DNA from: an uncultured Desulfosarcina sp.
Lineage (GTDB): Bacteria; Desulfobacterota; Desulfobacteria; Desulfobacterales; Desulfosarcinaceae
DNA length: 64,000 nucleotides
Direction of reading: 5' to 3'
Assembly: GCA_963674945.2 (NCBI GenBank)
Contig: CAXXWQ010000004.1
Span: forward strand, 704,001 to 768,000
Position 1 is the stretch's first letter. Every line of letters begins with the position of its first letter. Positions 6,489 through 50,853 of this stretch are shown here, in pieces. The position numbers and the translations under genes are program-made. Under the pieces are notes generated by a model, which had not been told where the DNA came from, searched no databases, and worked only from the letters and a program-made list of their open reading frames with translations.

Positions 6489-6543
6489 ACTAGACATGAA
6501 GACATTCATTTTACATCAAGCATGAAAATGGGAGGAGAACTTC

Positions 6544-7917: not shown

Positions 7918-7965
7918 TCGCAAGGTGATAGTCGGACGAAAGAACGCATGGGAAACACCAAAATG

Positions 7966-8000
7966 AGTGAGAAGGTCGGTATCCCGCCGACCTTCTCACT
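7966..8000 (+). terminator. Intercistronic stem-loop after DUF1329 (partial terminator or mRNA stabiliser)
   Basis: 14-bp perfect stem AGTGAGAAGGTCGG/CCGACCTTCTCACT with only a short T run. Confidence 0.55.
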
Positions 8001-8123
8001 TTACGAATCCGCTTGCACTTTCTCTACGAACGAACCTGAAAATCAATTAAATGAAAAAAGGTATAAAATTTCGTAACAGTTCTATGCCTTTTCTAACGAA
8101 ACGAAAAAGGTGAAATTGAAAAA

Positions 8124-9296
8124 ATGGAAAATCGATTCAGCGAGCATAAAAAAAACCAAAGAAAATACTTGGTTGTAATCGGTTGCATTCTGCTTTTCCT
8201 ATGCTCCGCAATGCCAACCTTTGGCGAGACCTTAGACATGCTGAAAGTGCCGGCGGAAAAAGCCGACTGGGCGCCATATTCAATGCTTATGGATGCAACG
8301 AAGGTGGATAACCGGCTGGTGGCAGTAGGTGAATGGGGGTACATCCTGTATTCGGATAACGAATGCGACGGTTGGAACCAGGCAGAAGTGCCGGTGAGCG
8401 TTACCCTGACAGCAGTCTATTTTCCGACCTATGATCAAGGATGGGTTGTCGGTCACGACGGTGTGGTGCTTCATACCGAAGACGGTGGTGAAACCTGGAA
8501 AAAGCAACTGGACGGCACGCAGATCGGCCAGATGGTATATGACCAGGTAAAGCATATGGTGAAAACCAACAGCGATCTTCTTTCCGACCAGGAATCCGGG
8601 CTGACTGAAGAAGAACGGGAGGAAATGGAAATAACGGCAGAGGACCTGGATTTTTTCCTGAAGGATGTGGAATTCTTTATGGAACAAGGTCCCGCTCAGC
8701 CGTTGATGGATGTTTGGTTCAAAAATGAGAAGGAGGGTATCATTATCGGCGCCTTCGGCTTCATCCTTTCCACGAAAGACGGCGGAAAGACATGGCAGCC
8801 CATTTTGGACCGCATCGATAATTTGGGAAACACCTTATACGCCATCACCCGCTCCGGCGACGACCTGTTCATTTCCGGGGAGGCTGGAATATTATACCGG
8901 TCAGAAGATTTCGGCCAGAGCTGGCAGCGTTTAGAATCTCCCTACGACGGGACCTTTTTCGGCATTGTCGGAGATCCATCCGGGGGTTTTGTATCGGCTT
9001 TCGGGATGGCGGGTCATATCTTTAATTCAACGGACCGGGGAGAAACCTGGACACCCTCGGAGACCAACCAAGGAGAACTTCTTTTCGGCGGTGCCTTCTT
9101 ATCGGATGGCTCCTTTTGCGTTGTGGGCCGTAACGGTGTCATTTTGAGGAGCATAGACCGGGGAAAAACCTTCACCCCCCTTGCCAATCGTTACCGCGGG
9201 CCTGGTATGGCCATTGTTGAGCTGCAAAAAGACGTTCTGGCGGTGGTGGGGCTCACAGGGGCTTCCCGGATTGAAATCAACAAACCAAGCAACTAA
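8124..9296 (+). CDS. YCF48-like / BNR-repeat beta-propeller protein
   Basis: Repeated S/TxDxGxTW motifs and GWVVGHDGVVL. Canonical position between DUF1329 and the RND gene. Confidence 0.85.
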   Translation: MENRFSEHKKNQRKYLVVIGCILLFLCSAMPTFGETLDMLKVPAEKADWAPYSMLMDATKVDNRLVAVGEWGYILYSDNECDGWNQAEVPVSVTLTAVYFPTYDQGWVVGHDGVVLHTEDGGETWKKQLDGTQIGQMVYDQVKHMVKTNSDLLSDQESGLTEEEREEMEITAEDLDFFLKDVEFFMEQGPAQPLMDVWFKNEKEGIIIGAFGFILSTKDGGKTWQPILDRIDNLGNTLYAITRSGDDLFISGEAGILYRSEDFGQSWQRLESPYDGTFFGIVGDPSGGFVSAFGMAGHIFNSTDRGETWTPSETNQGELLFGGAFLSDGSFCVVGRNGVILRSIDRGKTFTPLANRYRGPGMAIVELQKDVLAVVGLTGASRIEINKPSN

Positions 9297-9314
9297 AAAT
9301 AGAGGAAAATCAAG

Positions 9315-11666
9315 ATGACCCAGAAGAACGTATCTGCTGAAGTTGACGACTCATATCTAAATGACGCGTCGTTTTTGGAAAAATTTCTCTTTTCCAAACG
9401 TCCACTGGTAATGGCGGTCTATATCATCTTTACGATCTTTTTCGGCTATCAGACATTTCAGATGAGGCCCCAGGCCAGCTTCCTAAGAATGATTCCCACC
9501 TATCATCCTTTCATCAAAAATTATCTCGAATACCAGGATGAACTCAAGGAGATGGGCAACGTTGTCCGTATTTGCGTCGAAACGACCGAGGGGACGATTG
9601 TTTCCCAGGAATATCTCGAAGTGTTGAGAAAAATAACCGACGAAGTCTTTTATATTTCCGGTGTAAACCGGGCGGGATTGAAATCCCTGTGGACATCGAA
9701 TACCCGATGGCAAGAGGTGACCGAGCAGGGGTTTAAAGGGGATGTCGTCATCCCCGTCACCTTCTCCGGGACACCGGAAGACTTGCAACAGGTCCAGAGG
9801 AATATCTTAAAGGCCAATATTGTGGGAAGTCTGGTGGCAAACGATTTTAAGTCCAGTATTGTCCTGGTGCCTCTTCATGATATTGATCCGGAAACGAGAA
9901 AACCACTCGACTATCGTAATTTCTCGGAAAAAATAGAGGAAATTAGAACCAAGTTTCAGAATGACCATATCAAGATCCACATCACCGGATTTGCCAAAAT
10001 CGTGGGAGACCTCATCGATGGTTCCGCTCGAATTCTGCTGTTTTTTTTCATCGCCTTTGTGATTCTGCTGCTTTTGCTGTGGTGGAGTTCTCGGTGCCCG
10101 AAAAACACGGCCGTTAGGGCGATCTCCTCACTTACGGCGGTACTCTGGCAGTTGGGGATCATGAGGCTCTGCGGATACGGGTTGAATCCATATTCGATGC
10201 TGGTGCCTTTTCTCATGTTCGCTTTAGTCGTCAGCCACGGCATGCAGATGTTCAACGCCATGGGTTTGGAAATGATCGCCGGTTCGGACAAAGTGAAGGC
10301 GGCACGGTTGGGCTTTCGCCAGATTTTCACGCCAGGTCTGGCCGCGCTGTTTACCGACTTTATCGGTTTTGCCACCCTGTTGGTGATTCAGATCGGCGTA
10401 ATTCAGGACATTGCCGTCGGGGCAAGCATCGGCGTGGCCGTGGTGGCCATTACCAATCTGATATTTCTGCCTGTGTTGATGTCGTATTCCGGCATCAGTG
10501 ATAGAACCATAAAAAGGATGGAAAAAGCGAACGCCTCGACAGACCACCCCGTATGGACTTTTTTGACCCGATTCAGCGAGACGAAATGGGCCTATGGTAC
10601 GGTGGTGACGGCCGTCATCTTTCTGGTGGTCGGCATTTACCTCATGCAGGGTTTGAAAGTCGGTGACCTGGACCCCGGGGCCCCTGAATTGCGGCCGGAT
10701 TCCCGCTACAACAAGGACAACGCCTATATGAACGACCATTACTCATCCAGCAGTGATGTGTTCGTGGTGTTGCTCAAAGCCCCCGAAAGAGGTGTCAGCA
10801 GCTATCGGGCGATCGTGCTCACCGATATGCTGGACAAGAAGCTGACCCATGATGTTAAGGGCGTACAAGACGTTGTAAGCTTCACGGATGCGATGAAGGG
10901 CATGAATGCCGGTTTTATGGAAGGATTCCCGAAATGGATCGCTATCCCCAGAAGCGAGGTGCAACGTAACTTTTTACCTCATTTCATGCCGGAAATGTTT
11001 TACCAGCGTGAAGGTGCCTTTTCTCCCATTCTTGTCTTTTTGCATGACCATGAGGCTGACACCCTGGAACGGGTGGTGAATGCCATTGATGAATTTGCCG
11101 AAGAGTACAATACGGAGACCGTTCAGTTTCTCATGGGCGCCGGTAACGGAGGTATCGAGGCGGCCACCAATGTTGAGGTGGAAAAGGCGCTCATGAAATT
11201 GACCATTTTGGTATATTCAGTGGTGTTTTTCGTATGCCTTCTTACCTACCGAAATTTCAAGGCGGCCATATGCGTTGTTACGCCTCTGGCACTCACCTCG
11301 GTTCTATGCGAAGCTCTCATGGCCCAAATGGGTATCGGGATCAAGGTCGCCACGTTGCCCGTCGTTGCCGTGGGGGTTGGTATCGGTGTGGACTATGGTA
11401 TCTATATCTATAACAAGCTTGTTTATTACCGGGAAGAGCGTGGGCATAAATTGACACCGGCTTTCTACCGGACCCTGAACACAACAGGAAGAGCCGTCTC
11501 TTTTACCGGTATTACACTGTCCATCGGCGTCGCCACATGGGCCTTTTCACCCATCAAATTCCAGGCAGATATGGGATTTTTGTTGACCTTCATGTTTCTG
11601 TGGAACATGGTTGGTGCCATGGTGCTTTTGCCTGCCATTGCAAGAATTCTATGGAAGAAAAGGTAG
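9315..11666 (+). CDS. RND/MMPL-family inner-membrane transporter
   Basis: Two TM clusters separated by periplasmic loops. GVGIGVDYGIY, TGRAV and FSPIKFQADMG motifs. Confidence 0.9.
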   Translation: MTQKNVSAEVDDSYLNDASFLEKFLFSKRPLVMAVYIIFTIFFGYQTFQMRPQASFLRMIPTYHPFIKNYLEYQDELKEMGNVVRICVETTEGTIVSQEYLEVLRKITDEVFYISGVNRAGLKSLWTSNTRWQEVTEQGFKGDVVIPVTFSGTPEDLQQVQRNILKANIVGSLVANDFKSSIVLVPLHDIDPETRKPLDYRNFSEKIEEIRTKFQNDHIKIHITGFAKIVGDLIDGSARILLFFFIAFVILLLLLWWSSRCPKNTAVRAISSLTAVLWQLGIMRLCGYGLNPYSMLVPFLMFALVVSHGMQMFNAMGLEMIAGSDKVKAARLGFRQIFTPGLAALFTDFIGFATLLVIQIGVIQDIAVGASIGVAVVAITNLIFLPVLMSYSGISDRTIKRMEKANASTDHPVWTFLTRFSETKWAYGTVVTAVIFLVVGIYLMQGLKVGDLDPGAPELRPDSRYNKDNAYMNDHYSSSSDVFVVLLKAPERGVSSYRAIVLTDMLDKKLTHDVKGVQDVVSFTDAMKGMNAGFMEGFPKWIAIPRSEVQRNFLPHFMPEMFYQREGAFSPILVFLHDHEADTLERVVNAIDEFAEEYNTETVQFLMGAGNGGIEAATNVEVEKALMKLTILVYSVVFFVCLLTYRNFKAAICVVTPLALTSVLCEALMAQMGIGIKVATLPVVAVGVGIGVDYGIYIYNKLVYYREERGHKLTPAFYRTLNTTGRAVSFTGITLSIGVATWAFSPIKFQADMGFLLTFMFLWNMVGAMVLLPAIARILWKKR

Positions 11667-23576: not shown

Positions 23577-23655
23577 TATAGAGCCCATTTTATTAATCTC
23601 GATTTATTAATCGATGTTTACATTTGACAACCCGTCAAACAAAGGGAGGACGAAA

Positions 23656-26211
23656 ATGACAGCCACGGCAAAACAAGTTAAAACAAAGGAACCTCCGGTC
23701 ATAAAGGGTAAAATCAACATCGAGGCGATCAACAAAACAAACCCGTTACCCACCAGAATCAAGGCGATGCGGGATCGGTACCTGAAGGAAATTTCCAAGG
23801 TGTCCAGCGACAGGCCGTGGTACATGTATCAGTCATATCTGAAGACCGAGGGCGAGCATCCCGCAGTTCGCAGGGCCAAGGCGCTGGCCAATGTCTGGGA
23901 GAACAAGGCCATTGCGGTTCATGATCTCGATCTGATCATGGGCAACTTTACCGATGCCATCCGCGGTGCCCATCCGCCGCTGGAGTATTATCCTGAACAG
24001 ATGCGGCGTTTGCTGGAAGCAAACGAGGCGAACTGGACCAACTCCCAGCAGTGTCAGGCGGATCTCTCCAAAGAAGACTTCGAAAAAATCATGGAGGCCG
24101 CCAAGTACTGGGAGAACCACTGGCCCACCCCGGAGATGCGAGAGCGCTGGGACAAACTGATCGCCGTGATCGATCCGAATGACTATCAGAGAGACTTGCA
24201 GTACACCGGGGTCAACTGGGCCCCCGAGTACCTCCCAAGAGAGAAGCGAGTCAAAAAGACGCCTCTGGTACCGCGCCCGCAGGCCACCGGCGCAGATTTC
24301 GAGAAGGCACTGAAGGTCGGTTACAAGACCTTGATCAAAAATGCCAACGATCATATCGACAGGATACAGGGAATCGCCAGAGGACGGGATTTCACCGATG
24401 ATGAAAAAGAAAAGCTGGCGGTCCTGGAGGCGATGGTCATTGCTCTGAAGGCGGTGATTCGCTATGCGAATCGCTATGCTGCCATGGCGGAGGAGAAGGC
24501 AGCAACAGAGAAGGATCCGCAGAGAAAGGCGGAACTTCTGAAGGCGGCGGAGGCTTGCCGTTGGGTGCCGGAAAATCCCCCCAGGACCTTCTTTGAAGCA
24601 GTGCACTCCTTCTGGTTCACGGCAATGGGTGTTTATATGGACAAGTGCCAGCCCAACGTATTTGCAGGTCGATTCGACCAGTACATGTATCCGTACTATG
24701 AGGCCGACATCAACGAAGGCCGCATGACCCGCCAGGAGGCCGTGGAGCTTTTCGGTTGCCTGATCATGAAGCTATGTGCACTCGAACCCTATATGACCCC
24801 GGAGCACCGGGCCGTCTCCCAGGGCACCAATTATGAAAACATCACCATCGGTGGCTGCGATATCCATGGCAAAGATGCCTCCAATGAGCTGTCTTGCATC
24901 GTTCTGCATGTAGCCGCAGAAACCAAGACGCATCAGCCCTATATTTCGCTGCGCTACGATCGTCAGATAGCTCCCGAGTTAATGGAGAAGGCACTCGAGT
25001 GCAACCGTAAGCACGGGGCAGGGATTCCCGCCTTTTTCGGCGATCGTGTGAACATCGAGTATATGCTGAGCCGGGGCCATACCCTGGAACATGCCCGGGA
25101 TCATGCCATTGCCGGATGTGTGAACTGCGTGTACCCGAAGTGCTTCGCCTGGATACGCATGCCCATCACCACAAACAACGAAGCCAAGATGCTGGAGGTA
25201 TTCCTTCACAGAGGCCTCGATCCCCGCACGGGTATCCAGATCGGAAATGACTATGGCGATCCGGGGGACATGACGTTTGATGAACTGGTGGAAAATTATA
25301 AAAAAGAGGTTGCCTACTTCATCAATTGGCAGATTACCCAGTCAGATGCCTGGGACAGGGCCGTGAATTTCACTACGCACGATGCATGGTTCTTTCCCTT
25401 CGTATCTGCCAATATGGAAGGTTGCATCGAAAGCGGCAAGGATATCAGCAGACTGGGTGGCGTGACGGCCATAGACGATGCCAATTACGGCCTCGACCGT
25501 TTCATCCAGGATGCGGCGGATTCGCTCATGGCCATTAAAAAGCTTGTCTATGAGCAGAAAAAGTACACCATGGACGACTTTCTTAAGGCGATGGATGCCA
25601 ACTGGGAAGGATACGATCAAATGCGCGCCGACGCCTTGACGCAACCGAAATACGGAAATGATGACGACGAGGCGGATGCATTGGTAGCCGACCTCTGGTC
25701 CTTTATCACCGATGTCAATATGGCGAGGAAGGATATGTTCGGCAGGCATTACACCGTCTACCGTCAGGGTTCATCCGTGGCAGCGTCCGCCGGCAAATGG
25801 ACAGGGGCACTTCCCAACGGCCGCAAGGCAGGCGAATGGCTCTCGGACGCTTCGCTGTCCCCGGTGCAGCAGGCGGATCAGAAGGGGCCCACGGCCGTCA
25901 TCAACTCGGTGACCAAGCTCGATTTCAGGCATATGGATGGCACGCTCTTGAACATGAAGCTCTGCCCGAGCCTGGTGGACAAACCCGGTGGAATGTTGAA
26001 ATTCAGACAGCTGGTGGAAACATACTTCGACAAGGGCGGCCAGGAAATTCAGTTCAATATCCTGGATAAGGATACGCTGCTGGATGCCCAGAAAAAGCCC
26101 GAGAATTATCGCGATCTGGTGGTACGGGTTGCCGGTTACAGTGCATTCTGGGTGGATCTGGAAACCCAGGTGCAAGATGAGATCATCAGACGAACCGAGC
26201 ACGCAATGTAA
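23656..26211 (+). CDS. Glycyl radical enzyme GRE1 (851 aa), unassigned class
   Basis: SD GGGAGG. GRFDQYMYPYY, Cys loop AIAGCVNCVYP, KYGNDD, QFNI and Gly loop LVVRVAGYSAFW. Confidence 0.95.
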   Translation: MTATAKQVKTKEPPVIKGKINIEAINKTNPLPTRIKAMRDRYLKEISKVSSDRPWYMYQSYLKTEGEHPAVRRAKALANVWENKAIAVHDLDLIMGNFTDAIRGAHPPLEYYPEQMRRLLEANEANWTNSQQCQADLSKEDFEKIMEAAKYWENHWPTPEMRERWDKLIAVIDPNDYQRDLQYTGVNWAPEYLPREKRVKKTPLVPRPQATGADFEKALKVGYKTLIKNANDHIDRIQGIARGRDFTDDEKEKLAVLEAMVIALKAVIRYANRYAAMAEEKAATEKDPQRKAELLKAAEACRWVPENPPRTFFEAVHSFWFTAMGVYMDKCQPNVFAGRFDQYMYPYYEADINEGRMTRQEAVELFGCLIMKLCALEPYMTPEHRAVSQGTNYENITIGGCDIHGKDASNELSCIVLHVAAETKTHQPYISLRYDRQIAPELMEKALECNRKHGAGIPAFFGDRVNIEYMLSRGHTLEHARDHAIAGCVNCVYPKCFAWIRMPITTNNEAKMLEVFLHRGLDPRTGIQIGNDYGDPGDMTFDELVENYKKEVAYFINWQITQSDAWDRAVNFTTHDAWFFPFVSANMEGCIESGKDISRLGGVTAIDDANYGLDRFIQDAADSLMAIKKLVYEQKKYTMDDFLKAMDANWEGYDQMRADALTQPKYGNDDDEADALVADLWSFITDVNMARKDMFGRHYTVYRQGSSVAASAGKWTGALPNGRKAGEWLSDASLSPVQQADQKGPTAVINSVTKLDFRHMDGTLLNMKLCPSLVDKPGGMLKFRQLVETYFDKGGQEIQFNILDKDTLLDAQKKPENYRDLVVRVAGYSAFWVDLETQVQDEIIRRTEHAM

Positions 26212-26397: not shown

Positions 26398-27060
26398 TTG
26401 AAAGTAATGGCATTTAACGGCAGTCCACGCATGAAAGGATGGAATACGGTCACACTCTTGGAAAAGGCTTTGGAGGGAGCTGCGTCCACAGGTGCAAAGA
26501 CTGAACTTGTTCAGCTTTATGATCTGAATTTTTCTGGCTGTATCAGCTGCTTTTCATGCAAAAAAAGCGACCGGAAGGAGGACGGGGTTTGTGCAGTAAA
26601 GGACGATCTGACGCCCGTACTCCAACGGATCAAAGATGCCGATGCGCTGATTATCGGCACACCTTTGTATTACCTCACCGAATCAGCCGGAACGCGAGCG
26701 TTTTTTGAACGTCTCTGTTTCCCTTATTTACAATATACAAAAGACATGCGGTCTCTTTTTCCAAAACGCATCAATACAGCCTTGATTTACACAATGAACA
26801 TGAGTGAAGAAATGATCGAGGTGGTTGGGCTTAACCAGCGGCTATCCATGAACCAGACCCTCCTTTCCATGCATTTCGGAACATGCGAGTTGCTTCTCTC
26901 CACAGATACGCTTCAATTCAGCGACTATGACAAATACGAATCGGAAATGTTTGACAAAGAGGCCAAAACCAGACGCCATGAGGAAGTCTTCCCAGATGAC
27001 TGCCAGCGTGCTTTTGAATTGGGTGTCCGCATGGTCACCAATAAGGGTGGGGAGTCGTAG
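26398..27060 (+). CDS. Iron-sulfur flavoprotein / NADPH-dependent FMN reductase (flavodoxin-like fold)
   Basis: TTG start with SD AAGGAG. NGSPR..WNT, CISCFSC...C.VKDD and GTPLY motifs. Confidence 0.88.
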   Translation: MKVMAFNGSPRMKGWNTVTLLEKALEGAASTGAKTELVQLYDLNFSGCISCFSCKKSDRKEDGVCAVKDDLTPVLQRIKDADALIIGTPLYYLTESAGTRAFFERLCFPYLQYTKDMRSLFPKRINTALIYTMNMSEEMIEVVGLNQRLSMNQTLLSMHFGTCELLLSTDTLQFSDYDKYESEMFDKEAKTRRHEEVFPDDCQRAFELGVRMVTNKGGES

Positions 27061-27098: not shown

Positions 27099-28034
27099 AT
27101 GATGAGCAATGAAGAAGATAGTGGCAATTTGAGGGGACGAATTTTCAACATCCAGCGCTACAGCACCGAGGACGGACCCGGCATCCGCTCGACCGTCTTT
27201 TTGAAGGGATGCCCGCTGACCTGTCTCTGGTGCGCCAACCCGGAATCGCAAAAGAGTTATCCCCAAGTCGGACACCGCGACGCGCTTTGCAAACAGTGCG
27301 GCAATTGTATGGCGGCCTGCACAGAAAAGGCGATTTCCTTTAACCCCGATGGAAAGGGAATCGTCATCGATCGAAATCTTTGCAATAACTGCGGCGAATG
27401 CACCAGAGTCTGCACCGAAGGCGCGTTGACCATGCATGGCAAGGATTATACACTGGAAGAGGTCTTCGAGGAGGTGAAACGGGATGAAATGTTCTACCGC
27501 AATACCGGCGGGGGGGTCACCTGTTCCGGCGGAGAGCCTCTGGCGCAACCCGCTTTCGTGGCGGCGCTTTTCGAAAGATGCCGGCAGGTTGGAATCCCCA
27601 CGGCACTGGATACGACCGGTCACGCATCCCGTTCGGCACTGGAGCAGGTCCTGGCCTATACGGATTTGTTTTTATTCGATTTGAAGTGCATGGACAGCGC
27701 CGACAGCCTTGCGTCCGTAGGGCAGTCCAACGAGCTCATGCTTGAAAATGCCGAACATGTGATGCAAAGCGGTGTTCCCATCATCATTCGGGTCCCGCTG
27801 ATCCCCGGAATCACGGAAAAAACGGAAAATCTTCAGAAAATCGCCGCGTTCGTCAAGCGGGTGAATCCGGAAACGCCCATCAACGTGCTGCCCTATCATC
27901 GTCTTGGCGTAAGCAAGTTCCGCATGATGGACATGACGTATAAACTGGACGACCTGGGGCCGATTCCACAAGAACGTCTGGATCAGATTGCCGAGATATT
28001 CGACTCCCATGGTCTGGTGTGCGAAATCGTATAG
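27099..28034 (+). CDS. Glycyl-radical activating enzyme AE1 (radical SAM with 2x[4Fe-4S] ferredoxin insert)
   Basis: DGPGIRSTVFLKGCPLTCLWCANPES, CKQCGNCMAAC, CNNCGECTRVC, SGGEPL and LPYH motifs. Confidence 0.95.
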   Translation: MMSNEEDSGNLRGRIFNIQRYSTEDGPGIRSTVFLKGCPLTCLWCANPESQKSYPQVGHRDALCKQCGNCMAACTEKAISFNPDGKGIVIDRNLCNNCGECTRVCTEGALTMHGKDYTLEEVFEEVKRDEMFYRNTGGGVTCSGGEPLAQPAFVAALFERCRQVGIPTALDTTGHASRSALEQVLAYTDLFLFDLKCMDSADSLASVGQSNELMLENAEHVMQSGVPIIIRVPLIPGITEKTENLQKIAAFVKRVNPETPINVLPYHRLGVSKFRMMDMTYKLDDLGPIPQERLDQIAEIFDSHGLVCEIV

Positions 28035-28079: not shown

Positions 28080-28772
28080 ATGCCCGAGAGAGTATTTACA
28101 GATCAGGAACTGAAGGAGATGGGAACCTTGACCCTCGACCTCCTGAAACAGGCCATTGAATCCGGAGACAAGGAAAAAGCCAAGGCCCTGGCAGACCGAA
28201 TGTATCAGGAGAGCCTCCAGATGCATGATATGTATGTGGACTGGGCGGCCGGATTCATGGATTGGATCTACCGAAACTGCGGGGACGACGCCCTTCTCGA
28301 AGCGGAAAAGAGGGTTTTCGGCGATTTTATGGGCCTTGCGAGCCTGCCCGATATGCGTGATATCGACTTTAAACTCAGAGCGTTGGGAACGGTTAATTCG
28401 CTCAGAGGCCACCAACAACCCTTAAGGATCGAAGAAGATGACGAGAAGCTGAGCATTACCATGGTGCCCTGCGGCAGCGGCGAACGATTATACCAGAAAG
28501 GTCGTTTCGGGCCGCCGTGCAACCTGTCTCTGATTAACAAGGCGCAGCCCTTGACCGGCGGCAAGACGGACTATCCGGTGTATTGCACCCATGAGCCGGT
28601 TCTCGAACTGATCGCCATTGAGAACCTTGGCTACCCCATCACCGTCTGTTTTCCTTGTGAGAACGTGGCCAGAGAAGAGGGAGGCTGCACCTTCTGCGTC
28701 TATAAGGACTTCAAGAATATTCCCGAAAAAGTGTGGACCAGAGTGGGGAAAGAAAAGCCCAAAGATCTCTAA
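28080..28772 (+). CDS. Cys-rich hypothetical protein (230 aa)
   Basis: SD CAGGAG. PCGSG, YCTHE, CFPC and GCTFCVYK segments. Follows AE1 in the same direction. Confidence 0.8.
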   Translation: MPERVFTDQELKEMGTLTLDLLKQAIESGDKEKAKALADRMYQESLQMHDMYVDWAAGFMDWIYRNCGDDALLEAEKRVFGDFMGLASLPDMRDIDFKLRALGTVNSLRGHQQPLRIEEDDEKLSITMVPCGSGERLYQKGRFGPPCNLSLINKAQPLTGGKTDYPVYCTHEPVLELIAIENLGYPITVCFPCENVAREEGGCTFCVYKDFKNIPEKVWTRVGKEKPKDL

Positions 28773-29258: not shown

Positions 29259-30245
29259 TCAATAAATTTCGCTGGGTGAGTTACCGTCCCACGGACTCCT
29301 GATAACTTCGAGGTAAATCATCGTCTCAGTCTTGACGATACCCGGTATATTTCCAAGACCATCCCTAAGAAAATCCGAAAGCGCCAGAATTTCTGAAAAG
29401 TGTACACCGAGAAGAATGTCATAGTGCCCCAGGATTATGGTAACGAAATGCACGGAATTGAATGACGCCAGTTTATTCGCTACATCGTCAACCGCACCGG
29501 GAACGACCTTGATGCCGATCATTGCCGTCATTTCATACCCGAGGGATCCGGGTTCGGTAACGGCGATGATCTCTGTAATTCCTTCGGAAAGAAGCCGCTG
29601 TAATCTCTTTGCGGCGCTTACCCTGCTGACACCCAGTTTTTTTGCCAGTTCTACCACCGGCATCCTGCCGTCCTTCTGAAGTTCTTCAATAATTGTCATA
29701 TCCAGCTCATCCGGAACGTATCTCTTCATTGCTGATTTCTTTTGATGCGCTGGTTTGTATTTTTGCGGGGTGGCCGCGCTTATGGGATATGACAATACGT
29801 TCTTAATCGTCTCCATGTGAATCAAGGTTTCATTGCCGGTGATTCCGGGAATTTTTCCGATTTCATGCCGAAGAAAGGCGGAGAGTGCGTCAAGGCCTCT
29901 AAAAAAAGCCCAGGTCACGATATCATAAGGGCCGGTGGCAAGAGCCACCGAACGGAAATTGGGAAATGATGCAAGTTTCTCAGCGACTTTATGGATATCG
30001 TGCTCTGAATTCACGGTAAAACCAACCGTCACGCTGAGGTTTTGCTTTGAAAGCGGCAGGGCCGGCACGGCGACGACTTTAATGATGCGCTCGTCGATGA
30101 TTCTTTTCAGTCTGGCGCTGGCCGCACGCTGACTGATGCCGGTCTTGGTTGCCAGATGAACAACAGGCATTCGGCCGTCTCTGGCCAGTTCCTGAATCAT
30201 CGTCAGATCGATCTTATCAAGCTCAAAATTTGCGTGTTGCCGCAT
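29259..30245 (-). CDS. Lrp/AsnC-family regulator with two tandem HTH-RAM units (Lrp1)
   Basis: Two LD..D..II.EL..DGR HTH units, each followed by a G.YD RAM domain. SD CAGGAG before MRQH. Confidence 0.9.
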   Translation of the reverse strand: MRQHANFELDKIDLTMIQELARDGRMPVVHLATKTGISQRAASARLKRIIDERIIKVVAVPALPLSKQNLSVTVGFTVNSEHDIHKVAEKLASFPNFRSVALATGPYDIVTWAFFRGLDALSAFLRHEIGKIPGITGNETLIHMETIKNVLSYPISAATPQKYKPAHQKKSAMKRYVPDELDMTIIEELQKDGRMPVVELAKKLGVSRVSAAKRLQRLLSEGITEIIAVTEPGSLGYEMTAMIGIKVVPGAVDDVANKLASFNSVHFVTIILGHYDILLGVHFSEILALSDFLRDGLGNIPGIVKTETMIYLEVIRSPWDGNSPSEIY

Positions 30246-30611
30246 AGTCAGTCTCCTGTGCGATCCTGCTGAATCGGAACCAGCCATTTTCACGATTGAT
30301 GCTGCCCTGACCATCCTTTCACAACAGTTCTTGAACGGATGCCGAGATAAATTATAATATCAGTATATTAAAATAATTCAAATTTTTTCCTCCCAATCGA
30401 TTCAGAATTAATTGACAAATATGTTTATCTAATATACCTATTGGCATATTAAGTAAACACTCTACAAGGATATAATGAACATTTAGGATCATTAACCATA
30501 ATAAAATACAAATTTTATCAGTAACGACAGCGCCAAAAAAAAGATTTGCCGGATATATCAATGATTCAAAGATGATTTCTTACCATCATTACCAGCAAAG
30601 GAGTATACACA

Positions 30612-34672: not shown

Positions 34673-36340
34673 ATGACGAACAACTGGCATTCAACCTATG
34701 ATGTTGTTGTAGTGGGAACGGGTGCAAGCGCTCTTTCCGGTGCGATCACCGCTGAATACAACGGTATGAAAACATTGGTAATCGAGAAGCTGGACAAATG
34801 GGGCGGTTCAAGCGCCTATTCCGGAGGAGGACTATGGATACCGAATAATTTCCTCATGCAGGAAAACGGGTATCTGGATTCGACCGAAGAAGCCTTGCAA
34901 TACATGGAGGCGGTTATCGAAGATGTCGGACCGGCCAGTTCAAGGGTAAGAAAAGAAGCCTACCTCAAATACGCGCCGGAGATGGCATTGTTTCTGAAAG
35001 ACCTGGGCTTTCAATGGGTACAGGCGCCATTTTACGCAGATTATTATCCGCTTGTTCCTGGCGCCAAGAACGGCAGGTGCATAGAGGGGGATTTTTTTAA
35101 TGGGAAAAAACTGGGAAAACTGAGAAAATCCCTAACGAGTATCCCGGGAATGCCGGATGTTGCAATCCACTGCGGTGATGCGTATCTGTTGCCTCTTGTG
35201 ACACAAACCTGGAAAGGTTTCAAGCGTACAATAAAAATATTTGGAAAAACGATTGCGTGGACGCTAACCGGAAGGCAACCGCTCGCCATCGGAAAAAGTC
35301 TCGTGGGCCAGCTCATGTATATTTTGCAAACAAAATATAGCACTCCGGTATGGCTGGAAAGTCCTTTAAAAGAAATCATCATGGAAGATGGTCGCGCCGT
35401 CGGCATTGTCGTGGAAAAAGAAGGAACATCAGTAAAGGTTCAGGCCAAAAAGGGTGTCCTGCTGGGAGCCGGCGGTTTCGCTCAGGGTGGTGAATACAGA
35501 CGCAAATACCAGCCCATCGGATCGGACTGGACTTCCGCCTCCCCCGGAAATACCGGTGATGCCATTCAGGCCGGTGAAAGAGTCGGGGGAGCGTTGGCGA
35601 TGATGGAAGAAGCCTGGTGGGGGGGGGCTTACATCTTGGATGGCAAAATAACCTTTTCCGTGCATGAACGCTCATTTCCCGGCTGTATGCTCGTGGACCA
35701 TTCCGGTTTTCGATATGTGAACGAATCCTGCTCTTATGTTGATTTTGGCCGCGCAATGCTGGATCGGGAAGCAGAAGTGGGCGGCGCCATCCCCTCATGG
35801 CTGATTATGGATGGGAAATACCGAAAAAAATATTTATTCGGTATGTTGCCGCCGGGCATGACCCCGAAAAAATATCTCAAAGACGGTACAATAATAAAGG
35901 CGAAATCCATTGAAGAACTTGCCGAAAAATGCGGGATTCACAAAGAAAATCTGCAAAACACGGTGAAACGATTCAATAGTTTCGCATACCAAGGCATTGA
36001 TGACGATTTTGGCAGGGGCACGAGTATTTATGACCGGTATTATGGCGACCCCGGGGTTTTCCCCAACAACAATTTAGCGCCAATTCAAAACGCCCCCTTT
36101 TACGCAATTAAATTCTATCCCGGAGATTTGGGAACCAAGGGGGGGCTGCTGACCGATGAATATGGCAGGGTATTGCGTGAAGACGGCTCCGTAATTAAAG
36201 GATTGTATGCATCGGGTAATAATACGGCTTCCGTAATGGGAAAGACGTACCCGGGCGCAGGATCCACACTTGGGCCGGCCTGCACCTTTTCATATATTGG
36301 AATGAATCATCTTGCCGAAGAAAATAATGAAATTAAATGA
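34673..36340 (+). CDS. FAD-dependent 3-ketosteroid-delta1-dehydrogenase-like (cyclic ketone alpha,beta-desaturase) enzyme
   Basis: GGSSAYSGGGLWIPNN, DYYP, NESCSY, GDLGTKGGL and YPGAGSTLG motifs. Confidence 0.85.
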   Translation: MTNNWHSTYDVVVVGTGASALSGAITAEYNGMKTLVIEKLDKWGGSSAYSGGGLWIPNNFLMQENGYLDSTEEALQYMEAVIEDVGPASSRVRKEAYLKYAPEMALFLKDLGFQWVQAPFYADYYPLVPGAKNGRCIEGDFFNGKKLGKLRKSLTSIPGMPDVAIHCGDAYLLPLVTQTWKGFKRTIKIFGKTIAWTLTGRQPLAIGKSLVGQLMYILQTKYSTPVWLESPLKEIIMEDGRAVGIVVEKEGTSVKVQAKKGVLLGAGGFAQGGEYRRKYQPIGSDWTSASPGNTGDAIQAGERVGGALAMMEEAWWGGAYILDGKITFSVHERSFPGCMLVDHSGFRYVNESCSYVDFGRAMLDREAEVGGAIPSWLIMDGKYRKKYLFGMLPPGMTPKKYLKDGTIIKAKSIEELAEKCGIHKENLQNTVKRFNSFAYQGIDDDFGRGTSIYDRYYGDPGVFPNNNLAPIQNAPFYAIKFYPGDLGTKGGLLTDEYGRVLREDGSVIKGLYASGNNTASVMGKTYPGAGSTLGPACTFSYIGMNHLAEENNEIK

Positions 36341-37991: not shown

Positions 37992-40547
37992 ATGACAGCC
38001 ACGGCAAAACAAGCAAAAACCCAGGAACCCCCGGTCATAAAGGGAAAAATCAACATCGAGGCGATCAACAAGACCAACCCGTTACCCGATAGAATCAAGG
38101 CGATGCGGGATCGGTACCTGAAGGAAATATCCAAGGTATCCAGCGACAGACCGTGGTACATGATGCAGTCCTGGAAGAAGACGGAAGGTGAACACCCCGC
38201 AGTCCGGAGGGCAAAGGCGCTGGCCAATTTCTGGGATAAAAAGGCCATAGCGGTTCACGATCTTGATCTCATCATGGGCAATTATACCGACGCCGTCCGT
38301 GGCGCCCATCCACCGATGGAGTATTACCCGGAAATGATGAGGCGTCTGTTGGAGACGAACGAGGCGAACTGGACCAACTCCCAGCAGTGCCGGGCGGATC
38401 TGTCCAAGGAAGACTTCGACAAACTGTTGGAGTGCGCCAAATTCTGGGAGGTCAACTGGCCCACGCCGGAAATGCGGGAACGCTGGGATAAGGTGATTGC
38501 CGAAAATGATCCCAACGACTATCACCGCGACTTGATGTACACCGGGATAAACTGGGCGCCCGAGTATATGCCCAGGGAAAAACGAACCAAGAAAACGCCG
38601 TGGGTGTCCCGCCCCCAAGCCACCGGCGCGGATTTCGAGAAGGCACTGAAGGTGGGTTACAGGAGCTTGATCAATAATGCCCAAAACCATATCGACAGAA
38701 TCCAGGAGATCGCCAGAGGTCGGAATCTCACCGAAGAAGAGAAAGAGAAGCTGGCGGTCTTAGAGTCGATCGTCATTGCCCTCGAGGGGATGATACGCTA
38801 CGCCAGGCGGTATGCCGCCATGGCCGAAGAGAAAGCGGCAAAAGAGAAGGATCCCCAGAGAAAGGCGGAGCTGTTGAAGGCGGCGGAGGCCTGCAGGTAC
38901 GTACCGGAAAATCCGGCCAGGACCTTCTTTGAAGCCATTCACACGTTCTGGTTCACGGCGCTGGGCGTTTATATGGACAAAGCCCAACCCAATGTGTTCG
39001 CAGGCCGATTCGACCAGTACATGTATCCGTACTATGAAGCCGATATCAATGAAGGGCGCATGACCCGGCAGGAGGCCGTGGAGCTTTTCGGCTGCCTGAT
39101 CATGAAACTGTGTGCGCTGGAACCCTACATGACACCGGAACACCGGGCGGTATCACAGGGCACCAACTACGAGAACATCACCATCGGCGGATGCGATAAA
39201 TATGGTAAGGATGCATCCAATGAGCTGGCGTGCATCGTTCTGCATGTGGCCGCAGAAACCAAGACCCACCAGCCCTATATCTCCCTGCGCTACGATCGAA
39301 AAATAGCCCCCGAGCTGTTGGACAAGGCACTCGAATGCAACCGTAAGCACGGGGCCGGAATTCCCGCCTTTTTCAGCGATCGTGTGAACATCGAGTATAT
39401 GTTGAGCCGGGGCCATACGTTGGAGCACGCCCGGGAGCATGCCATTGCCGGATGTGTGAACTGCGTGTACCCGAAGAGCTTCGCCTGGATGCGAATGCCC
39501 ATTACCACCAACAACGAGGCAAAGATGCTGGAGGTATTTTTGCACAGGGGCGTCGATACCCGTACCGGTCTCACGGTCGGAAACGACTACGGGGACATGA
39601 AGGATTTCAAGACATTCGACGAACTCAAGGAAGCCTATAAAAAAGAGGTGGCCTATTTTATCAATGTTCAGACCGATATGACGGAAGTCTGGGACAGAGA
39701 GACCAACTATACGCACGATGCCTGGTTCTGGCCGTTTATATCGGCGAATATGGAGGGCTGTATCGAAAGTGGCAAGGATATCGGCAGGCTGGGCGGCGTG
39801 ACGGCCATAGACGATGCCAACTACGGCCTCGATCGCTTCGTTCAGGATGCGGGCGATTCGCTCATGGCCATCAAGAAGCTTGTCTATGAGCAGAAAAAGT
39901 ACACCATGGACGACTTTCTTACGGCGATGGATGCCAACTGGGAAGGATACGATCAAATGCGCGCCGACGCACTGGCGCAGCCGAAATATGGAAATGATAT
40001 TGACGAGATCGACGATTTGGTCGCTGAGCTGTGGGGCCATATCACCGATGTTTACATGGCCAGAGAGGATATTTTCGGCAGGAAATATATCATCTACCGT
40101 CAGGGTTCATCCGTGGCCGCCTCCGCCGGCAAATGGACCGGAGCGCTCCCCAATGGCCGCAAGGCAGGCGAATGGCTCTCGGACGCGTCGCTGTCCCCGG
40201 TGCAGCAGGCAGACCAGAAGGGGCCCACGGCCGTCATCAACTCGGTGACCAAGCTCGATTTCAGGCACATGGACGGCACGCTTTTGAACATGAAGCTCTG
40301 CCCGAGCCTGGTGGACAAGCCCGGCGGAATGATGAAGTTCCGGCAATTGGTGGAAACTTACTTCGACAAGGGCGGTCAGGAGGTTCAGTTCAATATCCTG
40401 GACAAGGAAAAGCTGCTGGATGCTCAGAAAAGACCGGAGAATTACCGTGATCTGGTGGTTCGGGTTGCCGGCTACAGCGCATTCTGGGTGGACCTGGAAA
40501 CCCAGGTGCAAGATGAGATCATCCGGCGAACCGAGCACGCCATGTAA
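37992..40547 (+). CDS. Glycyl radical enzyme GRE2 (851 aa), close paralogue of GRE1
   Basis: Same MTATAKQ start, AIAGCVNCVYP and RVAGYSAFW. SD AGGGAG. Confidence 0.95.
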   Translation: MTATAKQAKTQEPPVIKGKINIEAINKTNPLPDRIKAMRDRYLKEISKVSSDRPWYMMQSWKKTEGEHPAVRRAKALANFWDKKAIAVHDLDLIMGNYTDAVRGAHPPMEYYPEMMRRLLETNEANWTNSQQCRADLSKEDFDKLLECAKFWEVNWPTPEMRERWDKVIAENDPNDYHRDLMYTGINWAPEYMPREKRTKKTPWVSRPQATGADFEKALKVGYRSLINNAQNHIDRIQEIARGRNLTEEEKEKLAVLESIVIALEGMIRYARRYAAMAEEKAAKEKDPQRKAELLKAAEACRYVPENPARTFFEAIHTFWFTALGVYMDKAQPNVFAGRFDQYMYPYYEADINEGRMTRQEAVELFGCLIMKLCALEPYMTPEHRAVSQGTNYENITIGGCDKYGKDASNELACIVLHVAAETKTHQPYISLRYDRKIAPELLDKALECNRKHGAGIPAFFSDRVNIEYMLSRGHTLEHAREHAIAGCVNCVYPKSFAWMRMPITTNNEAKMLEVFLHRGVDTRTGLTVGNDYGDMKDFKTFDELKEAYKKEVAYFINVQTDMTEVWDRETNYTHDAWFWPFISANMEGCIESGKDIGRLGGVTAIDDANYGLDRFVQDAGDSLMAIKKLVYEQKKYTMDDFLTAMDANWEGYDQMRADALAQPKYGNDIDEIDDLVAELWGHITDVYMAREDIFGRKYIIYRQGSSVAASAGKWTGALPNGRKAGEWLSDASLSPVQQADQKGPTAVINSVTKLDFRHMDGTLLNMKLCPSLVDKPGGMMKFRQLVETYFDKGGQEVQFNILDKEKLLDAQKRPENYRDLVVRVAGYSAFWVDLETQVQDEIIRRTEHAM

Positions 40548-40666: not shown

Positions 40667-41599
40667 ATGAACAATACAGGCGAAGGTAATGGACTCACGG
40701 GACGAATTTTCAACATCCAGCGCTACAGCACCGAGGACGGACCCGGCATCCGCTCGACCGTCTTTTTGAAGGGATGCCCGCTGACCTGTCTCTGGTGCGC
40801 CAACCCGGAATCGCAAAAGAGTTATCCCCAAGTCGGACACCGCGACGCGCTTTGCAAACAGTGCGGCAATTGTATGGCGGCCTGCACAGAAAAGGCGATT
40901 TCCTTTAACCCCGATGGAAAGGGAATCGTCATCGATCGAAATCTTTGCAATAACTGCGGCGAATGCACCAGAGTCTGCACCGAAGGCGCGTTGACCATGC
41001 ATGGCAAGGATTATACACTGGAAGAGGTCTTCGAGGAGGTGAAACGGGATGAAATGTTCTACCGCAATACCGGCGGGGGGGTCACCTGTTCCGGCGGAGA
41101 GCCTCTGGCGCAACCCGCTTTCGTGGCGGCGCTTTTCGAAAGATGCCGGCAGGTTGGAATCCCCACGGCACTGGATACGACCGGTCACGCATCCCGTTCG
41201 GCACTGGAGCAGGTCCTGGCCTATACGGATTTGTTTTTATTCGATTTGAAGTGCATGGACAGCGCCGACAGCCTTGCGTCCGTAGGGCAGTCCAACGAGC
41301 TCATGCTTGAAAATGCCGAACATGTGATGCAAAGCGGTGTTCCCATCATCATTCGGGTCCCGCTGATCCCCGGAATCACGGAAAAAACGGAAAATCTTCA
41401 GAAAATCGCCGCGTTCGTCAAGCGGGTGAATCCGGAAACGCCCATCAACGTGCTGCCCTATCATCGTCTTGGCGTAAGCAAGTTCCGCATGATGGACATG
41501 ACGTATAAACTGGACGACCTGGGGCCGATTCCACAAGAACGTCTGGATCAGATTGCCGAGATATTTAAATCTTTCAATCTACAATGTGAAGTCGTGTAA
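40667..41599 (+). CDS. Glycyl-radical activating enzyme AE2
   Basis: Identical to AE1 except for about 10 residues at each terminus. Confidence 0.95.
   Translation: MNNTGEGNGLTGRIFNIQRYSTEDGPGIRSTVFLKGCPLTCLWCANPESQKSYPQVGHRDALCKQCGNCMAACTEKAISFNPDGKGIVIDRNLCNNCGECTRVCTEGALTMHGKDYTLEEVFEEVKRDEMFYRNTGGGVTCSGGEPLAQPAFVAALFERCRQVGIPTALDTTGHASRSALEQVLAYTDLFLFDLKCMDSADSLASVGQSNELMLENAEHVMQSGVPIIIRVPLIPGITEKTENLQKIAAFVKRVNPETPINVLPYHRLGVSKFRMMDMTYKLDDLGPIPQERLDQIAEIFKSFNLQCEVV
40699..41565 (+). repeat. 867-bp direct repeat of 27134-28000 (activase core)
   Basis: Constant offset of 13565. Translations in other frames are also identical, and I saw no mismatch by eye. Confidence 0.85.
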
Positions 41600-48333: not shown

Positions 48334-50853
48334 ATGGCTGCGTCAAAAAGCAAAGAACCAAAGGTCGATCCACGCGTGATCCAACTGGAGGCGGTCTACA
48401 AGACCAATGGCTTCACCGACCGGATCAAGATGCTCAAGGACAGGGTAAGGGAAGACGGCGTTCACATCGCCGGCGAAAGGGCCAGATACTGGCTTGAGTC
48501 TTACAAGGAGACCGAGGGCGAGCATCCGGCGATCCGGAAGGCCAAGGCGGAAGCCAATCTCATGGCCAAGATGCCCATCGTCATCCGGGAGGGCGAGCTG
48601 ATCGTGGGCAAGCCCACGCCGCACAATCGCGGCGCCTATCCGGGTCACACCTTCGGACCGGAAATGATATTGATGATCCTGGCCCACCGGGACCAGATGG
48701 CCAGCGCCGGCAGCGAGGAACAGGACGCCGAGCTCACCGACGAAACCATCGAGGATATCCGCGCCGCGGCCACCTACTGGGATGCCATGGGGCTGGGCAA
48801 GAAACGCCATGCGGCGGATATGGCCTTTGGCGGCGAAAAGAGAAATCAGATGGGCCAGGCCAAGCTCAACATGGGCGGCGTCCTGCAGATGGGTGAACAC
48901 ACCCCGCTGGTCGTGGGCTGCGACTTCGAGAAGTACCTGAGAATCGGCATCAACGGCATCATCGCCGAAATCGAAGACCGGATTGCCGAGATCAAACGCA
49001 AAGGGGACAAGCTCACGCTGGAGGATACCCACAAAATCAAAGTCCTGGAATCGTTCATCATCGGCCAGAAGGGCTTTTCGGTATTTATCAAGCGCCACGC
49101 CGAAGCGGCGCGCGAGCTGGCCAAGAAGGAAAAGAACGCCACCAGAAAGAAGGAACTGAAAGAGATCGGCGATGTCTGCGAGTGGGTGTCCGAAAATCCG
49201 CCGCGCACCTTCAGAGAAGCGCTGCAGGCCTACTGGTTCATACCGGTGGTGCACGACATGGAAAAGGCCATCTCCAACCATTACGCCGGCCGTTTCGATC
49301 AGTATCTGTTCCCGTTTTACATGAAAGACATCAACGAAGGCCGCATGACCCGCCAGGAAGCGGCGGAACTGATGGGGAACATCTTCGTATTCTGGGATTC
49401 GCTGGAGCCTTTCCTCTTCACGGGTCTTGCGGGCAGGCGGGACCATCAGGCGGTGGCCCAGGCCAACTACATCGTCAACGTCACCTTGGGCGGAATCGAC
49501 CGGAGGGGCAGAGACAACTCCAATGAGTGGGGCTGTATGGTACTGCACGTGGCCGGACAGCTCAGAACGCACCAGCCGCACATCTCCATTCGTTATCATC
49601 ACGCCATGAAACCCGAGTTTCTGGATGCGGCCATCGAGTGCAACAAGAATCACGGCGCGGGCATCCCTGCATGGTTCAACGACCGCAACAACATGGAGTA
49701 CCTGATGAGCCGCGGCGTTCCCCATGAAGAGGCGCGGGACTGGTCCATGGCCGGCTGCGTGAATACCGGCATCTGCAAGACCTTCAACTGGGGAATGGGA
49801 CATGGGCCCGGATTCGTGCATCACGGCAAACTGCTCCAGATGGCGCTCAATCGCGGCGTGGATCCGGATACCGGATTCAAGCTGGGAACGGACACCGGGG
49901 ATCCGCGGGAATTTTCGACCTTCGATGAGGTGCTGGAAGCCTACAAGACGCAGGTGAAGCACCATTACGCCTTCCATATGAATCTGGGCTTAAACGGCGC
50001 AAAGCATTGCGACGGCACCGGCGAAGCCTATATGCCGATCGCCTCGGCCTGGCTGGAGGGATGTATCGAAAGCGGCACCGACTGCAACCATCATGGGTGC
50101 ACGACGGCTTTTCAGCTGGAGGGCGGCTCCTTCGTGGACCGTGCCTTCCCGGACACCACCGACTCGTTGATCGCCATCAAGCATGCGGTGTTCGAAGACA
50201 AGATCTGCACCATGGACGAACTTCTCGCGGCACTCAAGGCGGATTTCGAGGGGTATGAAGAGCTGCGCAAGAAGCTGATGGATTATCCCAAGTACGGCAA
50301 CGACCTGGAAGAACCCGACGAGCTGATGGCGCATATCTGGTCCTGGACCCGGGACGAGGCGCTCTCCTATCGGGATGAACTGGGCCGTAAGCCCAGACTC
50401 TTCCGTCAGGGCGCCGCGTGGGCCCAGTGGGTTGCCGCAGAAACCGGAGCGCTGCCCAACGGGAAGAAGAAGGGGGAACCCCTGGCCGACGGGTCGTTGT
50501 CACCCGTTCGCGGCTGCGACAAGAACGGTCCCACGGCCGTGATGAATTCATCGGCGAAATGTGACATGATGGGCATGGAGAGCTCACTGATGAACATGAA
50601 GTTTTCCGCCGGCGTTCTTGGAAGCAATGAGGGCAAGCAGAAGTTTGCCGCCTTGCTTAGCACTTTTTTTGCCAAGGGCGGATCCCAGTTGCAGCTGAAT
50701 ATTTTGAACAGAAAAACCCTTCTGGATGCCAAAGCCCATCCGGAGAATTACCAGGACCTGGTGGTACGGGTTGCGGGATACAGTGCTTACTGGATCGAGC
50801 TGACGCCGGAAGTACGGGACGAAATCATCACCCGGACGGAACACGCCATGTAG
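48334..50853 (+). CDS. Glycyl radical enzyme GRE3 (839 aa), distant paralogue, no adjacent activase
   Basis: SD AGGAGGAG. GRFDQYLFPFY, Cys loop SMAGCVNTGIC and Gly loop LVVRVAGYSAYW. Confidence 0.95.
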   Translation: MAASKSKEPKVDPRVIQLEAVYKTNGFTDRIKMLKDRVREDGVHIAGERARYWLESYKETEGEHPAIRKAKAEANLMAKMPIVIREGELIVGKPTPHNRGAYPGHTFGPEMILMILAHRDQMASAGSEEQDAELTDETIEDIRAAATYWDAMGLGKKRHAADMAFGGEKRNQMGQAKLNMGGVLQMGEHTPLVVGCDFEKYLRIGINGIIAEIEDRIAEIKRKGDKLTLEDTHKIKVLESFIIGQKGFSVFIKRHAEAARELAKKEKNATRKKELKEIGDVCEWVSENPPRTFREALQAYWFIPVVHDMEKAISNHYAGRFDQYLFPFYMKDINEGRMTRQEAAELMGNIFVFWDSLEPFLFTGLAGRRDHQAVAQANYIVNVTLGGIDRRGRDNSNEWGCMVLHVAGQLRTHQPHISIRYHHAMKPEFLDAAIECNKNHGAGIPAWFNDRNNMEYLMSRGVPHEEARDWSMAGCVNTGICKTFNWGMGHGPGFVHHGKLLQMALNRGVDPDTGFKLGTDTGDPREFSTFDEVLEAYKTQVKHHYAFHMNLGLNGAKHCDGTGEAYMPIASAWLEGCIESGTDCNHHGCTTAFQLEGGSFVDRAFPDTTDSLIAIKHAVFEDKICTMDELLAALKADFEGYEELRKKLMDYPKYGNDLEEPDELMAHIWSWTRDEALSYRDELGRKPRLFRQGAAWAQWVAAETGALPNGKKKGEPLADGSLSPVRGCDKNGPTAVMNSSAKCDMMGMESSLMNMKFSAGVLGSNEGKQKFAALLSTFFAKGGSQLQLNILNRKTLLDAKAHPENYQDLVVRVAGYSAYWIELTPEVRDEIITRTEHAM

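Follow-up and report, generated by a model that had tools for sequence, protein, structure and literature searches.

By their sequences, three proteins encoded in a 64,000-nucleotide stretch of an uncultured Desulfosarcina sp. genome (assembly GCA_963674945.2, contig CAXXWQ010000004.1, positions 704,001 to 768,000; hereafter the window) fall into a so far unstudied clade of glycyl radical enzymes (GREs) marked by a conserved Cys-x-Asn loop. We call them GRE1, GRE2 and GRE3. It is highly probable that they use a single catalytic cysteine, that they are not eliminases of the Cys-X-Glu (CXE) type, and that the second cysteine in the loops of GRE1 and GRE2 is incidental. Their chemistry is more tentative. 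To judge from the loop, having Asn in place of Glu likely commits these enzymes to radical carbon-carbon chemistry with an organic acid as substrate. The reading that we favour, with a probability of about 0.35, is base-free C-C chemistry via one thiyl radical, similar to that of phenylacetate decarboxylase (PAD), leading to decarboxylation of a lipophilic carboxylic acid.

A clade with asparagine in the cysteine loop

The longer open reading frame around GRE1 spans 23614-26211, and a GGAGG ribosome site upstream of the ATG at 23656 backs the start used in the original prediction, which gives a protein of 851 residues. Residues are numbered from this start; counting from 23614 adds 14 (Cys488 becomes 502 and Arg501 becomes 515). 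The Cys loop reads AIAGCVNCVYP in GRE1 and GRE2 (codons TGT GTG AAC TGC for the last four residues of GCVNC) and SMAGCVNTGIC in GRE3. The Gly loops, RVAGYSAFW in GRE1 and GRE2 and RVAGYSAYW in GRE3, are all intact and end in Trp. Hence GCVNC in GRE1 and GRE2, GCVNT in GRE3 and the Trp-ended Gly loops are all present as originally described. In PDB alignments, the Cys of GCVN in GRE1 matches the catalytic Cys of CutC, AAD and glycerol dehydratase (GD), which identifies GCVN as the true Cys loop. The positions of these and other features are given in Table 1.

Table 1. Features of the GRE loci, with positions in the window unless a locus is named.
Feature	Position	Strand	Remarks
GRE1, PFL-like glycyl radical enzyme, Cys-x-Asn clade	23656..26211	+	851 aa; Cys488, Asn490, Cys491, Gly827
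GRE1 Lys330 and Asn334, near end of barrel strand 2	24643..24657	+	putative pocket residues
GRE1 Cys loop G-C-V-N-C	25114..25128	+	catalytic Cys488, clade-conserved Asn490, non-conserved Cys491
GRE1 Arg501	25156..25158	+	aligned with fumarate-binding Arg492 of MASS (Arg508 of BSS)
GRE1 Asp614-Arg615, on strand before beta8	25495..25500	+	77/77 each
GRE1 R-Q-G, on strand beta8	25762..25770	+	Arg703 77/77, Gln704 73/77, Gly705 77/77
GRE1 Gly loop RVAGYSAFW	26125..26151	+	radical Gly827, Trp832
Flavodoxin-like FMN protein	26398..27060	+	PF03358; putative electron donor for the activase
GRE activating enzyme	27099..28034	+	CxxxCxxC and two ferredoxin-type motifs; TIGR02494 340 bits, cut-off 174
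Conserved hypothetical protein, last in GRE1 operon	28080..28772	+	230 aa; no Pfam/NCBIfam match; single copy in genome
KstD-like FAD oxidoreductase, upstream of GRE2	34673..36340	+	PRK12844 660 bits, cut-off 789
GRE2	37992..40547	+	87% identical paralogue of GRE1; GCVNC at 39450-39464
Second activating enzyme, after GRE2	40667..41599	+	96% identical to the first
GRE3	48334..50853	+	same clade; 42% identical to GRE1; GCVNT at 49753-49767; lacks Arg501
Phage_ABA_S-like site	L097:11997-12326	-	
Phage_ABA_S-like site	L096:8657-9425	-	
Phage_ABA_S-like site	L030:2915-3256	+	

GRE1 matches PF02901 (E 3e-141) and PF01228, and scores under every NCBIfam equivalog cut-off, as well as under that of the PFL2-3 subfamily model (500 against 678). 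The fingerprint pattern RVxG[FWY] is satisfied by GRE1 and GRE2; GRE3 carries Arg at the later Gln. With both domains, the fingerprint, the central Cys and a radical-SAM activase adjoining GRE1 and GRE2, these proteins qualify for the PFL-like GRE superfamily.

The clade was delimited using the best 120 of 7554 matches of a homologue search. Its 77 rows are the top 72 matches and fragment P0075, minus four proteins of the same genome, plus the eight paralogues of this genome; P0075 was added post hoc, after its identity and motif had been seen. The 198 other GRE rows used for comparison (47 from the homologue list, 144 cluster representatives and 7 from genomes) come from nearest-match lists and are not a random sample, and their pocket columns were anchored on motifs. 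A tree was built from 172 rows that have 600 residues or more. The 74 full-length clade rows form a single branch in it, with a support of 98 in the Shimodaira-Hasegawa-like approximate likelihood ratio test (SH-aLRT), the only support computed for our two trees, both of which were quick searches. The clade is small, since five of the six best representatives after clustering at 50% are members of it. The sources of the ten clusters looked up are named as Chloroflexota, Binatia, Deltaproteobacteria, Steroidobacteraceae, Halieaceae and metagenome-assembled genomes of Gammaproteobacteria.

Two residues after the catalytic Cys (Cys+2), Asn is found in 72 of the 77 clade rows (the others have Asp in three, Glu in one and Thr in one) and in 4 of the 198 other rows, which rules out a chance origin. 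Trp at Gly+5 occurs in 76/77 and 16/198, respectively. A sequencing error behind GCVNC was also ruled out: GRE1 and GRE2 use the same codons there, and seven independent homologues agree. The claim that the Glu of eliminases, isomerases and HPAD is missing is thus borne out, as all three proteins have CVN and a single clade row has Glu. The original prediction also considered a loop without Glu unusual. The novelty of lacking Glu was overstated, because 114 of the 198 non-clade rows also lack Glu (84 have Glu, 4 Asn and 110 other residues). The Cys loops of environmental GREs are, as far as sequences tell, far more varied than those of the characterised set.

Characterised enzymes provide precedents for loops without Glu (Gln in PAD, Leu in AAD, Ser in BSS), and none for Asn among the structures compared and the literature. 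In particular, no characterised GRE with GCVN was present among the PDB alignments compared or in the open-access literature searched, and the latter yielded no description of a GRE with GCVN or GCIN, or of one linked to steroid degradation. A review states that C-O eliminases and isomerases keep CXE (PMC13450708). The statement in the original prediction that phenylacetate and indoleacetate decarboxylases have Gln at this position is right for PAD, which has Gln484, and wrong for the indoleacetate enzyme (IAD), which is reported to carry Glu502 in a CXE loop (PMC13450708, PMC13232127). Gln484 is the only characterised amide at Cys+2 among the systems compared. The study of PAD (PhdB, with a CXQ loop) describes this residue as essential, with Q484E inactive and Q484A and Q484L of negligible activity; its authors do not think that it is an acid/base, and they place Ser at the same position of PflB and BssA (PMC7079210). 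PAD and the clade thus share a neutral amide at Cys+2, Gln in the former and Asn in the latter. They differ further on: the essential Trp495 of PAD (PMC7079210) lies at Cys+13, where the clade, by position count, mostly has Arg, with Trp at +11.

Two further GREs outside the clade are encoded in this genome. One has a Cys-Leu-Gln loop (CXQ, as in PAD) and is broken by one in-frame TGA (G000:C3:2604431-2606842, locus L108). Separately, among the 144 cluster representatives near the clade (P0121-P0264), the Glu at Cys+2 is missing in 81, and 16 other residues occur there.

The second cysteine is private to one subclade

The Cys three residues after the catalytic one (Cys+3, Cys491 in GRE1) had been proposed to pair with Cys488 as a CxxC site, serving either as a radical relay or in disulfide-coupled redox. 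The idea draws on the presence of Cys+3 in GRE1, GRE2 and seven homologues with identities down to 76%, and in only 1 of the 198 other GREs. Conservation, which held for Asn (72/77), fails for this residue: the position has Thr in 44 clade rows, Ile in 13, Cys in 9, Ala in 8, Phe in 2 and Val in 1, so that Cys is missing in 68/77, among them six of this genome's eight paralogues. As regards conservation, this is the outcome that the original prediction itself had named as refuting. The nine rows are the nine nearest to GRE1 (76-100% identity) and lie in a ten-row subclade of at least 74% identity. The tenth, P0007 (74%), carries Ala and is nested among them with a support of 99, so that two changes are needed to explain the pattern. 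Other columns served as a private-Cys control: the nine rows with Cys+3 also share Cys at columns 147, 388 and 415, each found in at most one other row, and a mostly private Cys at column 784 (also in 8/68 others), which makes a private Cys491 unremarkable. Other clade members have extra Cys scattered at +4, +6, +8, +9 and +10. At Cys+3 the clade otherwise has small or hydrophobic residues, and Pro is found in 64/198 other GREs.

PFL and TdcE resemble GRE1 and GRE2 in having two Cys near the tip of the loop. Yet those of PFL are the adjacent and essential C418 and C419, and its radical is described as arising on C419 before moving to C418, the -1 position (PMC13450708), whereas the second Cys of GRE1 and GRE2 is at +3 and not conserved. 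The -1 residue is Gly in 77/77 clade rows, which together with the score on the PFL model (98 bits, cut-off 994) excludes membership of the PFL/TdcE group. Three results led us to reject the relay: the lack of conservation, the place of the Cys+3 rows in the tree and the control with other private Cys. From the sequences compared, a role of the CxxC pair is very improbable, and Cys491 is probably an incidental, ordinary packing substitution.

A pocket signature suggestive of an anionic substrate

The pocket signature of the clade is known from alignments alone. Lys330 is found in 75/77 rows and Asn334 in 74/77, two of the rows being fragments without this part of the protein. Both residues are nearly clade-specific relative to the other GRE rows, and Asn334 aligns with Ser282 of GD. 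His384 is present in 65/77, and Asp614, Arg615, Asp619, Arg703 and Gly705 are invariant. Arg501 falls on Arg492 of MASS in a gapless local alignment (fragment E 0.063; the chain numbering is offset by 12, as confirmed on the catalytic Cys). That residue is described as forming a salt bridge with fumarate, as does Arg508 of BSS (PMC12358834). The position has Arg in 59/77 clade rows; GRE3 to GRE7 and their relatives lack it. Gln704 maps to Gln707 of BSS by transitive alignment via P0198. This combination of residues suggests an anionic substrate.

Operons and gene neighbourhoods

Downstream of GRE1 and in the same orientation come the flavodoxin-like gene, the activase and the hypothetical gene. 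The proteins most similar to the latter in the Atlas, at 0.92-0.93, are in unnamed clusters rich in Binatota and Chloroflexota. There is also a weak lead from this protein to ATC-hydrolase-like proteins. No activase is adjacent to GRE3. Over 867 bp (about 27134-28000 and 40699-41565) the activase genes of GRE1 and GRE2 do not differ at a single base, and the accompanying GREs are only 84% identical at the DNA level; this identity reflects recent gene conversion, duplication or assembly collapse. Scans for sigma-54 and sigma-70 promoters and for terminators gave signals at chance level.

The KstD-like gene upstream of GRE2 has a 74% identical paralogue directly 3' of GRE4, elsewhere in the genome. 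KstD-like, OYE, SDR and lipid-uptake-type genes (DUF1302/DUF1329, FadL-like) lie around the GRE loci, and GRE4 has in its vicinity a family III CoA-transferase, enoyl-CoA hydratases, an SDR and a thiolase/OB-fold pair. The zone within 12 kb of the eight clade genes, 2.3% of the genome, holds five of the eight enoyl-CoA hydratase homologues, the sole thiolase/OB-fold pair of its type, one of two family III CoA-transferases, two of four KstD-like flavoproteins, two of eight DUF1302 and two of ten OYE-type genes.

A generic-pattern scan of outside contigs recognised clade GREs at 2 of 73 metagenome loci, L022 and L030. The neighbours are a divergent LysR gene and genes for a family III CoA-transferase, a SnoaL-like protein and an amidohydrolase at L022, and genes for a hot-dog dehydratase, an amidohydrolase and DUF4125, with a small Phage_ABA_S-like gene, at L030. 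A genome scan with GRE1 for outside neighbourhoods returned a single locus, which was not of the clade. The Phage_ABA_S-like protein (108-113 aa) is also encoded directly after GRE7 and twice near GRE4, and DUF4125 recurs at its sites in L096 and L030. It is a candidate Cys-poor accessory protein.

Other genes of the window are worth reporting. Two PanB-like proteins, 52% identical, are encoded just past the GRE2 activase (41621-42490 and 43434-44339, both on the minus strand). Three motifs of the PanB encoded in this genome, LVGDS, GDLP and VKLEG, are absent from both, and the later Glu is kept; we take all of these to be functional in PanB. By their motifs, they are probably not metal-dependent hydroxymethyltransferases. 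Double-domain Lrp/AsnC regulators lie beside the GRE loci (29259-30314 and 47022-48062, minus strand). This family has 21 copies in the genome, four of them within 12 kb of clade GREs, where sigma-54 activators are enriched too. A Transposase_29 gene (51598-53853, plus strand), 0.7 kb past GRE3, apparently splits a glycoside-hydrolase-123-like gene (53832-56315 and 51089-51466, minus strand). Finally, a DUF1302-DUF1329-YCF48-like set followed by a large membrane protein occupies 4890-11666. A 98.9% identical copy of its DUF1302 gene (G000:C3:975367-977001) adjoins GRE5, which is itself 95-96% identical to GRE3; these similarities suggest duplicated catabolic modules.

Probable local expansion of the clade

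The genome has eight clade members (seven with Asn and one with Asp), on two large contigs and with mutual identities of 41-96%. The assembly has an estimated contamination of 5.7%, so that near-identical pairs such as GRE3 and GRE5 could include strain variants. Among the 40 nearest relatives, 24 of which belong to the same genus, scoring of all candidates yielded nothing at clade level; the best match had 38% identity (E 4e-114). Many GRE matches in these relatives have what we take to be HypD-type loops. Larger samples, of 300 genomes from the order, 400 from the phylum and 400 from the class, with two to three candidates scored in each genome, were equally negative at clade level; the nearest matches were in one order genome (36%) and four phylum genomes (38-42%), with none in class genomes. 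The clade GREs were likely acquired and then expanded locally. A QmoC gene above the cut-off fits a sulfate reducer.

Discussion

In the base-free chemistry that we favour, the activase would install a radical on Gly827, from which it would be transferred to Cys488. The basic residues (Lys330, Arg501, Arg615 and Arg703) would hold the carboxylate or carboxylates of the substrate, and Asn490, acting neither as acid nor as base, would position it by a hydrogen bond, as is proposed for Gln484 of PAD. The product would feed CoA-dependent degradation. AAD (PDB 7E7L) has some likeness to GRE1: a Glu-less GCVL loop, a Trp-ended Gly loop and no accessory subunit; it is the second-best PDB match (E 9e-117) and the best for the Cys-loop fragment. 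Nevertheless, it lacks Arg501, Asp-Arg and R-Q-G. The clade also has, as do PAD and AAD, a Glu-less loop without accessory subunit, but this is common to many unstudied GREs and thus not diagnostic. HPAD and IAD are described as orienting the substrate carboxylate toward the catalytic Cys (PMC13450708, PMC13232127); membership of either is excluded for GRE1 by its scores (444 against 1100 on the IAD model, 372 against 1150 on that of HPAD) and by the Glu that both carry.

Several observations weigh against this interpretation. AAD-like rows (CVLH/CTLH) branch elsewhere in the tree, and phylogeny therefore does not link the clade to decarboxylases. Arg501 is missing in 18/77 rows, including GRE3 to GRE7, which implies that the substrate anchor differs within the clade. 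Asp614, Arg615 and Arg703 also occur in 26, 29 and 45 of the 56 nearest non-clade rows; being common in clades with other loops, they are possibly structural. Cys+3 is retained in nine of the ten rows of its subclade, and a local role is thus possible. The products of known decarboxylases are volatile and terminal, while the gene context here points to a reaction at the start of a pathway. The neighbourhood counts themselves come from one genome with non-independent tandem copies and from queries picked in the same neighbourhoods; leaving out the query, an excess over chance is seen for the hydratases and two regulator families alone, that of KstD no longer being significant (p 0.066).

Fumarate-adding enzymes provide an alternative that we consider unlikely: a relative free of small subunits would add a lipophilic radical to a fumarate-like diacid held by Arg501, Gln704 and the backbone of the Cys loop, and the succinyl adduct would enter beta-oxidation. 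By alignment, BSS (4PKC/5BWE) and MASS (9O8U) may share with GRE1 the fumarate-site Arg and the equivalent of BSS Gln707; they too have no Glu at Cys+2, and both the genes near GRE4 and hosts such as Steroidobacteraceae, Binatia and Chloroflexota would suit such a pathway. On the other hand, BSS and MASS have a CMSP loop, small Fe-S subunits, a BssD-type activase and Bbs genes, none of which is found at the clade loci. Near the eight paralogues, up to 3 kb away, there is no convincing open reading frame for a small Cys-rich subunit, and the GRE1 activase scores 213 bits on the BssD model (cut-off 496). No Bbs equivalog was reached: on BbsB the thiolase scores 210 against a cut-off of 750, and at E 1e-45 the remaining Bbs models had no match. 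BSS-like rows (P0198, P0210, P0262) fall in another branch. On these grounds, membership of the X-succinate synthases was rejected. The lack of Arg501 in GRE3 to GRE7 is a further difficulty, as is Arg615, which maps, with a register uncertain by one, near Ile617 of BSS, presumably a residue of the hydrocarbon pocket.

It is likewise unlikely, in our view, that the clade performs a new GRE-type C-C cleavage or skeleton rearrangement on an acid whose ring or branching blocks beta-oxidation. Its pocket signature fits no characterised class, the KstD-like, OYE, SDR, DUF1302/DUF1329 and FadL-like genes would suit such substrates, and eight diverged paralogues suggest a series of related ones; however, nothing positive designates a specific reaction, and the neighbourhood is generic for degraders of lipids and aromatics. 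An eliminase or isomerase with its acid/base moved to Asp614, His384 and Lys330, where Asn490 merely orients a hydroxyl, seems quite unlikely. Enzymes of this group (GD 1R8W, PD, CutC, HypD, IslA, HpsG, YbiW, PflD) resemble GRE1 in sequence family, length and ferredoxin-type activase, and CutC and GD are among its top PDB scores. Asp614 is invariant, His384 frequent, and three members have Asp and one Glu at +2. Besides, the CXE Glu of HypD is reported not to be the ketyl-forming base, and Asp278 is proposed as the acid (PMC7077986). But these enzymes keep CXE, and changing its Glu to Gln is reported to kill HypD and CutC (PMC13450708, PMC7079210). GRE1 scores less than half of the equivalog cut-offs (HypD 473 against 1100, CutC 442 against 1050; 405-473 against 1000-1100 across HypD, CutC, HpsG and HpfG), which led us to reject membership. 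Moreover, His164, His281 and Asp447 of GD, which we take to be pocket residues, are replaced by Ala, Pro and Arg. Aminoacyl radical enzymes, in which Ala, Ser or Thr is described as replacing the radical Gly (PMC11528403), were excluded, as GRE1, GRE2 and GRE3 retain this Gly.

Past GRE clades with distinct pockets tended to bring new reactions. The present one is clearly delimited, with a distinct set of signature residues. Interest is tempered by the fact that Glu-less loops are the majority among unstudied GRE matches and that the CxxC motif does not hold. Still, unannotated clades are named as the field's gap in a 2026 review (PMC13450708), and a single genome offers here eight natural variants with activases, with and without Arg501, a ready panel for substrate screening. 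There is a small chance that the clade represents a new class of single-subunit GREs for the O2-free activation of steroid-, terpenoid- or alicyclic-type acids, with a blocked carbon as the site of C-C addition, cleavage or decarboxylation, in Steroidobacteraceae, Binatia, Chloroflexota and a sulfate reducer with eight substrate variants. If the neighbourhood is informative, these enzymes may help to explain how anaerobes open recalcitrant lipophilic acids.

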